A DNA stretch of 31,058 nucleotides from an uncultured Verrucomicrobiota bacterium. GTDB lineage: Bacteria > Verrucomicrobiota > Kiritimatiellia > CAIQIC01 > Lenti-01. Positions 12,380 through 14,959 of the stretch are shown here, piece after piece. Both the position numbers and the translations under genes were made by a program. The stretch covers positions 1-31,058 of the forward strand of contig CALKWZ010000080.1 of the NCBI GenBank assembly GCA_938003985.1, given 5' to 3'. The notes under the pieces are model-generated. The model saw only the letters and a list, made by a program, of their open reading frames with translations. It did not search any database and had not been told where the DNA came from. Numbering within the stretch: the stretch's first letter is position 1; every line of letters starts with the position of its first letter.

Positions 12380-14959
12380 ATGAAGATGAACGTGAAATGG
12401 ATAATTGCCGGCCTCTGGATCGCGGGAGCGGCGATCGCTTCGGCGGAAGACCGGCTTTCGATCAAGGGTTCCGACACCTTCAGCCTGGAACTGGGGCTGC
12501 CGCTGATCTCCGCGTTCCGGGAAACGCATCCCGAAACGGCCATCGAATTGACGGGCCTCGGTTCCGCCTCCGGCATCGCCGAGCTGTTGGAAGACACCTG
12601 CGACCTGGCCGCCTCCACCCGTTCGCTGGACGAAACCGAGCAGCGCATGGCCCGGTCCAAGGGCGTCGATCTCAAGTCCGCCATCGCCGGCTACTACGGC
12701 CTGGCCGTCGTCGTGCACGCGGACAATCCGCTGAAGGATCTGTCCGACGCCGCCGTCCGCGACGTCTTCACCGGCAAGGCCACGAATTGGAAACAGGTCG
12801 GCGGTCCGGACAAGCCCATCGAGGTGCTGATCCGCGACGCCACCGGCGGCTCCCATCTGGGCTTCCGCGAACTGGCCATGGATGGCCGCGCCTATGCCGC
12901 CCACGCCCAAGGCTTCGCCAGCTTCGAGGAATTGGTCCAGGCCGTGGCTGACCGTCCCGGCGCCATCGGCTACGTCGAAATGAACCTGCGGGAACATCCC
13001 GGCCTGCACAAGGTCTCGGTCAATGGCATCCCGCCAAACGAAATCACCGTCCAGAAGGGCATCTATCCCTACGTCCAGCCCGTTTGGCTCTATGCCCGAG
13101 CCAAATCCGCCAATCCGGCCATCGAGCGGTTCATCCAGTTCGTCCGCTCCAAGCCCGGCCAGCGCGTCGTCGAAACCGTCGGTTTCGTGCCGGCCGACCT
13201 CATCCAGTTGGACGGCCGCGGCGTCTTCTTCCTGGTCTTCCAGGTGCTGGGCGGCTTGGCGCTGTTCATCTTCGGCATGAACATCATGACCGACGGCCTG
13301 CGCGAAGCCGCCGGCCAGAAGCTGCGCACCATCCTCTCCGTCATGACCACCCGCAAGCTGTCCGGCCTGGGCCTGGGCACGCTGATCGCCACGCTGGTCC
13401 ACAGCAGCGCCACCACCGTCATGGTCGTCGGGTTCATCAACGCCGGCCTGATGACGCTCGTGCAGGCGATCCCCGTCGTGCTGGGCGCCAACATCGGCAC
13501 CACGCTCTCCATGCAGGCGATCTCGTTCAAGCTGGGCGACTACGCCCTGTTCGCCGTCGCCACCGGCTTCATCGTCAGCATGGTCGCGAAGAATCCCAAG
13601 CACAAGAAGATCGGCCTGTCCTTCATGGGCTTCGGCCTGCTGTTCCTGGGCATGAACCTGATGAGCGACGCCATCAAGCCGCACCGCGAACTGCTCAAGC
13701 CCGTCATGGCCTCGATCAGCGGCGAAACGCCCAAGGGACTGATTCTCGGCATCCTGCTGGCCACGGCGCTGACCTCGATCATCCAGAGCAGCGGCGCCAC
13801 CATCGGCATGGCTTTCGCGCTCGTCACCGCCGGCGTGCTGACCAGCGTCGAACAGACCATGCCGATCATCCTCGGCGCGCACATCGGCACCTGCGCCACG
13901 GCCCTGCTGGGTTCCATCGGCACCAGCATGAACGCCAAGCGCTCCGCCTACGCCCATCTCATCTTCAATATCTTCAACGTGACCCTGGCCTCCCTGCTGA
14001 AGGGCCCGCTCGTGGCGCTGCTGGCCTGGATGTCGCCCGACAACGTGCTGCGCCAGTCCGCCAACCTGCACACGGTGGTCATGGTCGTCGCCGCCTTCCT
14101 CGTGTTGCCGTTTTCCGCCCCCTACGCCCGGCTGGTCACCCGCCTGTTCCGCAGCCGCAAGCCGGAACCCGAGCCCAGCTATCTCGACGACAAGCTGCTG
14201 GACTACCCCGAACAGGCCATCTGCGCGTGCATGCACGAACTCCAGCGCGTCGCCAAAACCTGCGCCAAGAGCCTGCGCCTCGCCGGCCAGACCATCCTCT
14301 TCGCCCAGACCCCGCAGGACATCCACGCCATCAAGCTCAACGAACAGATCGTCAACGACGTCAAGGCGGCCATGAAGGAATACCTCGCCCGCCTCACCCG
14401 CCGCTACCTTTCCAAGCGCCAGGCCATCCTGATCCAGCACCTCGACCGCTGCATGAGCGACCTCGAGCGCATCGGCGACCATATCGAGACCATCTGCAAC
14501 CTGTCCCTGCGCCGCCAGAAGGTCCCCGAAGCCGTCGTGGACAAGGAATCCTTCGACACCGCCTTCCGGCTCTACGAAAACGCCCTGCACCTCTTCAAGC
14601 TCGTCATCGACTCGCTCGACCCCGACCGCGAAAACTTCCAGGAAATCGCCCAGCAGATCCTGCAGGCCCGCGACCAGTACATGCAGGACAGCCTCAACAC
14701 CCGCGCCATGTTCACCGACAAGGTGTCCCAGCGCCTCATCACGCCCATCGCCGGCATCTTCTTCAGCGAATACATCGCCGCCCTCGACCGCATCGTCAAG
14801 CACTCCAAGACCATCGCGCTCGCCGAAAAGCAGCCGCAGTTCTGGATCAAACGCACCAAGCTCGGCAAGCACGTCGATTTCGCCCCCGAACTCGCGCTCC
14901 AGCCGCTCGTCGATCCCAAGGACTATCTCTCCCGCCTTCAGGCCGAAGACTACCTCTAG
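12380..14959 (+). CDS. Fusion protein: PstS-like phosphate-binding domain + Na/Pi cotransporter (PF02690-like) + PhoU-like domain
   Basis: Signal peptide MKMNVKWIIAGLWIAGAAIASA; SBP region LSIKGSDTFSLELGLPLISAFRETHPETAIELTGLGSASGIAELLEDTCDLAASTR...; then ..FFLVFQVLGGLALFIFGMNIMTDGLREAAGQKLRTIL...LVHSSATTVMVVGFINAGLM...GANIGTT...IIQSSGATIGMAFALVTAG; C-terminal PhoU-like helices ..SDLERIGDHIETICNLS. One uninterrupted frame. Confidence 0.88.
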   Translation: MKMNVKWIIAGLWIAGAAIASAEDRLSIKGSDTFSLELGLPLISAFRETHPETAIELTGLGSASGIAELLEDTCDLAASTRSLDETEQRMARSKGVDLKSAIAGYYGLAVVVHADNPLKDLSDAAVRDVFTGKATNWKQVGGPDKPIEVLIRDATGGSHLGFRELAMDGRAYAAHAQGFASFEELVQAVADRPGAIGYVEMNLREHPGLHKVSVNGIPPNEITVQKGIYPYVQPVWLYARAKSANPAIERFIQFVRSKPGQRVVETVGFVPADLIQLDGRGVFFLVFQVLGGLALFIFGMNIMTDGLREAAGQKLRTILSVMTTRKLSGLGLGTLIATLVHSSATTVMVVGFINAGLMTLVQAIPVVLGANIGTTLSMQAISFKLGDYALFAVATGFIVSMVAKNPKHKKIGLSFMGFGLLFLGMNLMSDAIKPHRELLKPVMASISGETPKGLILGILLATALTSIIQSSGATIGMAFALVTAGVLTSVEQTMPIILGAHIGTCATALLGSIGTSMNAKRSAYAHLIFNIFNVTLASLLKGPLVALLAWMSPDNVLRQSANLHTVVMVVAAFLVLPFSAPYARLVTRLFRSRKPEPEPSYLDDKLLDYPEQAICACMHELQRVAKTCAKSLRLAGQTILFAQTPQDIHAIKLNEQIVNDVKAAMKEYLARLTRRYLSKRQAILIQHLDRCMSDLERIGDHIETICNLSLRRQKVPEAVVDKESFDTAFRLYENALHLFKLVIDSLDPDRENFQEIAQQILQARDQYMQDSLNTRAMFTDKVSQRLITPIAGIFFSEYIAALDRIVKHSKTIALAEKQPQFWIKRTKLGKHVDFAPELALQPLVDPKDYLSRLQAEDYL

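Follow-up and report, generated by a model that had tools for sequence, protein, structure and literature searches.

The window analysed here, the whole 31,058-nt stretch of contig CALKWZ010000080.1 from an uncultured Kiritimatiellia bacterium, carries a gene for an 859-residue protein in which a PstS-like phosphate-binding-protein domain, a sodium/phosphate cotransporter core of the NptA (NaPi-II) type and a PhoU-like tail are joined in a single open reading frame (ORF). The gene follows a cluster of arsenic-resistance genes and heads an array of three NptA-PhoU paralogues, termed A (fused), B and C (both unfused). Below, L numbers denote related loci and P numbers homologous proteins; TM stands for a transmembrane helix and Pi for inorganic phosphate. 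The parts of the fusion gene are as follows.

12380..14959, + strand: whole gene including the stop codon, 859-residue PstS-like / NptA (NaPi-II-type) / PhoU-like fusion (single ORF, domain matches)
12380..12445, + strand: signal peptide, residues 1–22, read from the sequence, with predicted cleavage after MKMNVKWIIAGLWIAGAAIASA and before ED
12446..13195, + strand: S-type PstS-like substrate-binding domain, predicted to be periplasmic, residues 23–272 (PF12849, PDB match, Foldseek)
13196..13213, + strand: short linker ADLIQL..., residues 273–278, a coil between E270-271 and H279 in the AlphaFold2 (AF2) model
13214..13588, + strand: transporter repeat unit 1, residues 279–403, with TM1, HSSA hairpin, 'GANIGT' helix and TM (PF02690, helices)
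13595..14032, + strand: transporter repeat unit 2, residues 406–551, with TM1', QSSG hairpin, 'GAHIGT' helix and TM (PF02690, second stretch)
14045..14146, + strand: extra C-terminal TM, residues 556–589, followed by RLFRSRKPEP (hydropathy peak 1.97; AF2 helix H556-589)
14177..14869, + strand: PhoU-like domain, predicted to be cytoplasmic, residues ~600–830, six long helices (PF01895 below gathering score, TIGR02135, AF2)

A preliminary description of this DNA, made from the letters alone, had proposed such a triple fusion in one frame and had named a frameshift or stop between the domains as a danger to it. Our data show that the fusion is real and conserved, and that such a break is found neither in the gene itself nor in eight orthologues. 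The frame is open from 12338 to 14959 (+), and no stop or start separates the domains. The probable start is the ATG at 12380, which gives a product beginning MKMNVKW..., in agreement with the N-termini of homologues, and has AAAGGGA 8–14 nt upstream. An identical protein (P0001) is present in public databases. The homologue search (ENA, NCBI, JGI and Logan assemblies) returned the same PstS + NaPi fusion in 59 clusters (779–891 residues, 49–100% identity), while a scan of one genome per GTDB species found 13–15 species-level metagenome-assembled genomes (MAGs) that match over residues 1–859, all labelled Kiritimatiellia or, in older labels, 'Verrucomicrobia' or 'Opitutia'. Internal stops are absent from all eight orthologous fusion genes checked, which come from independent assemblies, and the linker between the binding domain and TM1 is conserved among fusion homologues. 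Ratios of nonsynonymous to synonymous substitution rates (dN/dS, Nei-Gojobori, the same eight orthologues) are 0.15–0.39 for the PstS part, 0.09–0.25 for the membrane domain and 0.07–0.38 for PhoU; being below 0.4 in each part, they show that every part of the gene is under purifying selection. An artefactual origin by frameshift, mis-assembly or read-through of two genes is therefore extremely improbable: the clusters, MAGs, intact orthologues and conserved linker all speak against it, a frameshift or mis-assembly at the junction is ruled out, and we found nothing in its support. One homologue, P0056 (779 residues), has an out-of-frame stretch within the membrane domain, away from the junction, and is either a frameshifted copy or an assembly error of one MAG.

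The domain assignments are firm for the first two parts. PBP_like_2 (PF12849) matches residues 20–257 (Pfam, E = 3.7e-32), and Na_Pi_cotrans (PF02690) matches in two stretches from residue 295, the first being 295–429 (E = 8e-53; 178.6 bits versus a cutoff of 29.1). In NCBIfam, Na_Pi_symport (NF037997) reaches 187 bits against a cutoff of 50; ptsS_2 (TIGR02136) scores 163.6 bits, under its cutoff of 206.6, and TIGR00975 scores 33.7 bits and does not reach its cutoff of 205. The PhoU assignment is weaker: PF01895 matches residues 622–707 (E = 1.6e-4) with 22.4 bits, narrowly missing the gathering score of 23.5, which paralogues B and C pass with 25.7 and 30.5 bits, and phoU_full (TIGR02135) matches at 5e-5. 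The signal peptide noticed previously is borne out by a K-rich n-region, a hydrophobic core and an A-S-A motif, with no lipobox Cys. The predicted local distance difference test score (pLDDT) falls below 50 at residues 1–4 and 13–22, which is usual for signal peptides, and P0059 and P0074 show the same signal pattern.

The full-length AF2 model, built with 109 homologues, has a mean pLDDT of 85; the N-terminal domain is mixed alpha/beta, the membrane core is helical, and the tail consists of six long helices, as two PhoU repeats would be expected to give. The modelled PstS part superposes on crystal structures of S-type PstS proteins (Foldseek template-modelling scores of 0.79–0.82 for 1twy, 0.79 for 4n13 and 0.77 for 4jwo), and its best PDB sequence match is 4gd5/4q8r (3e-26). 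The N-terminal domain is thus predicted to adopt the Venus-flytrap fold of type II periplasmic binding proteins. Hence, of the earlier reading of a complete-looking binding domain with a PhoU-like tail, the former stands on its fold, and the latter keeps a sub-threshold match.

Such a combination seems to be very rare. When the junction-spanning segment (residues 20–400) was compared exhaustively with 1.84 billion cluster representatives, a single one crossed the junction, P0018 (859 residues), and the remaining top 150 matches covered either the PstS part or the transporter part alone; a fusion to a very different binding protein, for example a D-type PstS, could rank below these 150. Candidate PstS-NaPi fusions of other lineages among the long multi-stretch matches were identified as tandem PstS or PstS-OmpA proteins. 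The public names of the fusion are 'Na/Pi symporter' or 'phosphate:Na+ symporter' only, and our literature searches found no description of a PstS-NptA fusion. A 2026 survey of 926 genomes distinguished three NptA types, none of which carries a binding domain (PMC13170248). The architecture therefore appears to lack the wide distribution or published description that would have made it unremarkable, and the previous emphasis on a PstS tethered to a secondary transporter appears well placed. It is apparently rare, undescribed and confined to one clade of uncultured bacteria. Its components are known, and that binding proteins can work for secondary transporters is known too; what appears to be new is their combination.

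Seven NptA-PhoU proteins of other lineages (P0260, P0300, P0324, P0329, P0359, P0365 and P0382) have a different N-terminal extension of 125–180 residues directly before TM1. Most of these extensions begin with a signal-peptide-like segment and none is a binding protein. Of six that were tested, five gave weak matches to Big_1 (bacterial Ig-like), ranging from 4e-7 to 0.09 and all below the cutoff; that of P0260 gave no match in this test. The Big_1-like extension is another undescribed periplasmic add-on to the NptA family.

By our count, the membrane part would have seven crossings, three plus a re-entrant hairpin in each repeat and one C-terminal helix. A profile of the transporter matches SLC34A2 (9z60) at 5e-16 with both repeats colinear, repeat 1 aligning to SLC34A2 residues 83–180 and repeat 2 to residues 395–478. 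The SLC34A2 entries 9z60-9z66 were compared by sequence only, not being among the structures searched with Foldseek, and a literature search found no paper on them. The QSSS-type motifs read QSSG in repeat 2 and HSSA in repeat 1, the latter at the break of the helical hairpin. At this repeat-1 position (residues 341–344 of A) we find HSSA or HSGA where SLC34 and NptA of other lineages carry QSSS; the His is common to paralogues A, B and C and to P0260, and it may be relevant to ion or proton coupling.

A standard signal peptide places the binding domain in the periplasm, and the extra C-terminal helix makes the number of crossings odd, so that an N-out/C-in topology is plausible for the membrane part. 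The binding domain would then be held about six residues before TM1, with the PhoU-like tail in the cytoplasm. The positive-inside tally (15 versus 6) is in favour of N-out, and the short, uncharged N-tails of the unfused paralogues fit it, as do the extensions of other lineages, in which a signal peptide and a Big_1-like segment directly precede TM1. For SLC34 an N-in/C-in orientation with a cytoplasmic N-terminus has been reported (PMC6325988), and the bacterial core may be flipped in the membrane relative to its eukaryotic SLC34 homologues. A model of the membrane domain alone (residues 273–600, m75cd50a21384) reaches a pLDDT of 93.9 and a predicted template-modelling score (pTM) of 0.90. 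It has no significant Foldseek match in the PDB up to 2026-04-08 (best E = 0.02, template-modelling score ≤0.27), VcINDY and TRAP, to which modelling has related the family, being among the folds not significantly matched; the elevator fold of NaPi-II has been proposed by modelling only (PMC6325988).

What the binding domain binds can be judged from its pocket, which we mapped onto the phosphate contacts of Clostridium perfringens PBP-1, S11, T12, S13, S41, S59, R125, S129, G130 and T131 (PMC5381212). The corresponding residues in the window are S31, D32, T33, S62, T80, R152, G156, G157 and S158. Four are identical (S31, S62, R152 and G157), and T33, T80 and S158 are conservative replacements; D32, in place of Thr12 of PBP-1, is common in canonical S-type PstS. 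With S129 to G156 as the sole non-conservative change, eight of the nine positions are compatible with binding. Thr80 occupies the position where D-type PstS proteins have the Asp of the low-barrier hydrogen bond, so the pocket classes as S-type. The Asp-Arg pair of the S-type proton relay (D89/R231 in SphX) is gone, however: the window has Y106 and Q233, and across the fused clade position 106 is mostly Y or F, rarely L, N or C, and position 233 is Q or E. Canonical S-type relatives keep D106 and R233, while in the orphan, arsenic-linked clade described below the Asp is replaced (Y106, R233, N32). Work on SphX proposes that the pair activates the Ser/Thr proton acceptor, and this S-type protein has micromolar affinity (PMC13614923). 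We considered Asp32 of 'GSDT' as a clade-specific proton acceptor that restores the low-barrier bond and rejected it, as GSDT is common in S-type PstS proteins that keep the Asp-Arg pair.

The ligand is likely a tetrahedral oxyanion, most simply phosphate. The preliminary description had gone further and suggested high-affinity Pi uptake that discriminates against arsenate. This part did not survive, since S-type proteins are the lower-affinity and less arsenate-selective class, with the weakest arsenate discrimination measured (about 150-fold for PBP-1, PMC5381212), and the domain has moreover lost the Asp-Arg pair. Unusually high affinity or arsenate discrimination is thus not supported by the sequence.

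The transporter to which the binding module is joined varies, as the tandem array and its counterparts elsewhere show.

12380-14959, + strand: paralogue A (fused), first of the three tandem NptA-PhoU paralogues
15047..16804, + strand: paralogue B, unfused NptA-PhoU, 585 residues (Pfam; 57% identical to the transporter part of A)
16884..18719, + strand: paralogue C, likewise unfused NptA-PhoU (Pfam; 46% identity with the transporter part of A), GAGGAG preceding a likely GTG start at 16884

Most homologues carry the PstS module on an A-type transporter, although it is not bound to this partner. P0053 and P0055 have PstS parts 92% and 90% identical to that of the window on transporters 90% and 84% identical to paralogue B of the window, P0057 and P0059 also have B-like transporters, and in P0074 (L009/L010) the module is on a C-type transporter (78% identical to C of the window). 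The junction of P0053 reads VFFLVFQVLGGLALFIFGM followed by GIMSDGLRVA, A-type to the middle of TM1 and B-type thereafter, so this protein (L007/8) reads as a crossover between tandem paralogues inside TM1, just downstream of the linker. Locus maps vary accordingly: the order is PstS-A-B-C in the window, L003/4, L012, L014, L018 and L019, PstS-A-C in L013, PstS-B-C in L007/8, PstS-B alone in L022/L023 and PstS-C alone in L009/10. Unfused A orthologues of 83–87% identity exist as well. L001 and L052 have PMT_2 in common as the upstream gene, the difference between them being an 825-nt PstS segment that only one of the two possesses, and L025 has an unfused A-B-C array whose downstream genes are syntenic with those of the window. 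A neighbour-joining tree computed from the transporter parts, without support values, has fused and unfused members mixed within both the A and the B clade. Together, this mixing and the varied maps indicate that the module has been gained, lost or moved repeatedly, yet every array that has it carries it on the leading gene.

In comparisons of the same gene pairs (window versus L011-L017 and L052), synonymous divergence is higher in the PstS segment than in the transporter and PhoU segments, mostly by 1.5–2.4-fold and up to 3-fold in L017, with 0.77 versus 0.40 and 0.33 in L014. This suggests a mosaic history of the gene, or gene conversion among paralogues A, B and C. The roughly 870-nt gap between ACR3 and unfused A in L024/L025 was considered as a degraded PstS remnant and turned out to contain a DsbD_TM/CcdA-like gene. 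At L052 12667-15277 the genes after the fusion are called as 109 and 779 residues, which suggests a rearranged or frameshifted B/C pair.

A docking signature was sought by comparing residues of A-type proteins with and without the module; the differences are confined to the linker and position 549, and no clear signature emerged. This observation bears on the reading in which the PstS-like domain is a periplasmic sensor or gate rather than a substrate donor, and the substrate reaches the transporter directly from solution. Ligand-induced closure would then switch the transporter allosterically, or signal via the PhoU-like tail to a Pho-type two-component system. We consider this rather unlikely, though several facts agree with it. 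The transporter family works without binding proteins, as the unfused A orthologues (86% identity) and Staphylococcus aureus NptA (PMC13170248) illustrate; hardly any transporter residue co-varies with the fusion state; PhoU domains of NptA modulate PhoPR signalling (PMC13170248); and an S-type, probably low-affinity pocket suits the sensing of ambient Pi. In L003/L004 a histidine kinase/response regulator pair even lies between an orphan PstS-like gene and the fusion, but a kinase gene is absent from the window. Moreover, the linker of about six residues sets the cleft right above the transporter, like in binding-domain-fused importers, and a generic delivery role would equally account for the module being kept on the leading paralogue, whichever that is.

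The neighbourhood points to arsenic. The ars and hgc genes reported earlier beside the fusion were confirmed above model cutoffs for HgcA, HgcB and ACR3, and ArsC belongs to the thioredoxin-type class:

9244-10224, + strand: hgcA (NF040863, 393 bits versus a cutoff of 275)
10221-10541, + strand: hgcB (NF040864, 113.7 bits versus a cutoff of 99)
10538..10969, + strand: thioredoxin-type arsenate reductase ArsC of the LMW-PTP (low-molecular-weight protein tyrosine phosphatase) family (PF01451, 7.5e-21; TIGR02691, 1.7e-44, below cutoff)
11039..12250, + strand: ACR3 arsenite efflux gene (TIGR00832, 367 bits versus a cutoff of 282.8)
L002 8001-8855, L003 1386-2240 and L020 8227-9048: orphan PstS-like genes, 284 residues, ~61% identical to the fused domain, pocket GSNT / Y106 / R233

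ACR3 lies immediately upstream of the fusion on the same strand, with a gap of 129 nt. Further upstream, also on this strand, are an ArsP_1-family permease, two thioredoxin-fold proteins and a DsbD_TM protein. The arsenic linkage recurs across species: ACR3 is upstream of the fusion, either directly or with few genes between, in L003, L007/8, L011, L015, L016, L020, L052 and L053, and the order arsR-arsP-trx-arsC-(arsM)-ACR3-(DsbD_TM...)-fusion is found in L007/8, L011, L015, L016, L052 and L053. In most core-clade fusion loci ACR3 and other ars genes are just upstream. The closest free-standing relatives of the fused domain are 58–63% identical to it, and several of them are orphan PstS-like genes directly after ACR3, near which pstCAB was not found (L002, L003/4 and L020). 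The whole PstS-like clade, and not the fusion alone, is therefore tied to ars clusters, and the fused domain probably derives from an ACR3-linked orphan gene. No ABC permease or ATPase adjoins the fusion in the window or in more than 20 related loci; L001 holds a separate pstB-phoU locus. As judged by strand and spacing, the fusion is probably expressed together with the arsenic-resistance genes; promoter and terminator scans of 10900-19100 gave sites no more numerous than in shuffled sequences.

The hgcA and hgcB genes lie within the ars cluster, between the thioredoxin/DsbD genes and arsC. The HgcA of the window reads GVNVWCAAGEGNF; the canonical HgcA cap-helix motif ends in Lys rather than Glu.

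Such a setting raises the question of whether arsenate itself is the physiological target, with As(V) taken up for ArsC/ACR3 (or ArsM) or sensed in the periplasm by an arsenate-tuned domain. In its favour are the position of the fusion directly after arsC-ACR3 in the window and many related loci, and that of the orphan paralogues directly after ACR3. S-type binding proteins discriminate poorly against arsenate (PMC5381212), and second-shell residues are remodelled in the clade (D106 to Y, R233 to Q/E). We nevertheless find this reading improbable. A detoxification cluster would gain nothing obvious from importing arsenate on purpose, most of the phosphate-contacting residues are retained, and the divergent fusions L054 and L009/10 lack ars linkage. 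In addition, Pst/Pho genes are known, unexplained companions of arsenic islands and are usually read as securing the Pi supply (PMC3834237).

The reading we favour, with a probability of roughly one half, is that the fusion is an ion-coupled Pi importer with a tethered binding domain that hands its ligand over to the carrier. In this model, the signal peptide would export the S-type PstS-like Venus-flytrap domain to the periplasm, where the linker of about six residues would tie it to TM1 of the NptA/NaPi-II-type core, making one inner-membrane polypeptide. The tethered domain would capture phosphate, or at least a tetrahedral oxyanion, and release it at the outward-facing site of the ion-coupled transporter, which could raise the capture rate and the apparent affinity. 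The PhoU-like cytoplasmic domain may throttle transport or signal the cytoplasmic Pi status. As the fusion heads the three-paralogue array, co-directional after arsC-ACR3, it would probably be expressed with the arsenic-resistance genes and so keep up the Pi supply under arsenic stress. Topology, ligand, import direction, coupling ion, hand-over and co-expression are all inferred here. We prefer hand-over because tethered binding domains act in this way in other systems, a fusion of the same type being the main argument for the TAXI-GltS class (PMC12344293), because the binding domain is conserved under selection, and because the leading paralogue of an array, be it A, B or C, keeps the module. 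TRAP, TTT, TAXI-GltS and ABC importers with fused binding domains follow the same logic.

The direction of transport also allows the opposite view, that the three NptA-PhoU paralogues are Pi (or arsenate) exporters and that the PstS-like domain inhibits or triggers export in response to external Pi. Escherichia coli YjbB is reported to promote Pi export and to be insufficient for import (PMC7980370, citing Motomura 2011; PMC13170248), and the resistance neighbourhood is rich in efflux, with an ArsP-like permease and ACR3. On the other hand, nearly all binding proteins go with import, S. aureus NptA with its PhoU domain imports Pi (the latter domain modulating homeostasis and PhoPR signalling; PMC13170248), and nothing indicates that this family exports arsenate. 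We therefore hold export to be quite improbable.

Several observations weigh against a tethered importer with hand-over. The uncertainty over direction just mentioned is one, a family member, YjbB, being linked to export (PMC7980370, PMC13170248). The implied N-out orientation is opposite to the N-in of SLC34 (PMC6325988), though the repeats are colinear, and the model search did not confirm an elevator or DASS-like fold of the core. The pTM of the full-length model is 0.55, too low to predict with confidence how the binding domain is placed against the transporter. With the S-type Asp-Arg pair lost in the fused clade, phosphate binding itself is uncertain. The transporter can do without the domain, as functional-looking unfused A orthologues (86% identity) in syntenic loci indicate, and it bears few marks of adaptation to it, position 549 being the only core position that consistently differs between A-type proteins with and without the module. 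Finally, the most divergent fusions (L054 and L009/10) have no ars neighbours.

Comparison with known systems helps to place the protein. S. aureus NptA and E. coli YjbB likewise have two Na_Pi_cotrans repeats followed by a PhoU-like domain, which is the exact architecture of paralogues B and C; unlike the fusion, none of the three described NptA types (PMC13170248) has an N-terminal periplasmic binding domain, and repeat 1 of usual NptA has QSSS where the fusion has HSSA. With S-type PstS proteins (PBP-1 4Q8R/4GD5, Vibrio cholerae 1TWY, Synechocystis SphX and Sll0540) the domain shares fold (template-modelling scores of 0.6–0.8), sequence (3e-26), a Ser/Thr at the Asp position of the D-type low-barrier hydrogen bond and most phosphate contacts. 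It differs from them in being covalently joined to a secondary transporter with no adjacent pstCAB, in having Tyr and Gln/Glu for the Asp-Arg pair and Gly for S129, and in scoring under the TIGR02136 cutoff.

In ABC importers with covalently fused substrate-binding domains, such as GlnPQ and OpuA, a short linker likewise connects a Venus-flytrap domain to the translocator, at its first or last TM helix. Those importers are ATP-driven, whereas the fusion has no ABC ATPase or permease and has a secondary carrier as its translocator. With TRAP, TTT and TAXI-GltS it has in common the logic that an ion-coupled secondary transporter is served by a binding protein, and in the last of these an N-terminal binding-domain fusion (homologues from Lachnospiraceae) is the key argument for coupling (PMC12344293, PMC9971032). 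The families are different, however: PstS rather than DctP, TAXI or TctC as the binding protein, NaPi-II rather than DctQM, TctAB or GltS in the membrane, and presumably an inorganic oxyanion rather than an organic acid as the substrate. As only PF12849 and PF02690 domains serve these roles, by domain content the fusion is not a TRAP, TTT or TAXI-GltS member and is at most an analogue. Arsenic islands, too, have phosphate-acquisition genes beside ars genes, but those are complete pstSCAB-phoU ABC systems of Proteobacteria (PMC3834237), in contrast to the NptA-PhoU carriers with fused or orphan PstS-like domains seen here.

Beyond the array, mevalonate-pathway genes (diphosphomevalonate decarboxylase and two GHMP kinases; window 18867-21914, – strand) converge on paralogue C. 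The + strand ORFs 18933-20318 and 20385-21869, considered as operon members, are shadows of these minus-strand genes in GC-rich DNA. A 1189-residue ORF (window 21891-25460, +) combines SBP_bac_1 (residues 378–654) with a UgpA/MalF-like ABC permease region (residues ~966–1178) so that the window contains a second fusion of a binding protein to a membrane domain; in L007, L025 and L043 it is conserved at 81–90%. The public call of this ORF in L007 has 895 residues and SBP_bac_1 only, and its start and extent are uncertain.

Binding proteins were long regarded as partners of ABC importers, and before TAXI-GltS was proposed in 2025, TRAP and TTT were the only secondary transporters known to use them; a TAXI binding protein fused to GltS then served as evidence that a new class dependent on binding proteins exists, and the authors asked for further classes as a test of whether only elevator-type carriers can use binding proteins (PMC12344293). 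If true, the PstS-NaPi-II fusion would be a further such class, from bacterial relatives of the human SLC34 phosphate transporters. A broader proposal, which we offer tentatively and with some doubt, is that PstS-NptA arose independently as a fourth class, and as the first to serve an inorganic anion, that the ACR3-linked orphans act in trans on unfused A, B and C, and that the system provides ATP-independent, arsenic-induced Pi scavenging in anaerobic Kiritimatiellia. In the fusion, the coupling of a Venus-flytrap domain to an ion-driven carrier could be studied within one simple polypeptide, with natural fused and unfused allele pairs and A/B/C chimeras as ready-made controls, and the fusion suggests a possible route for anaerobes to scavenge phosphate without the cost of ATP. 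Its recurrent place behind arsC-ACR3 makes a link between arsenic resistance and phosphate acquisition testable.

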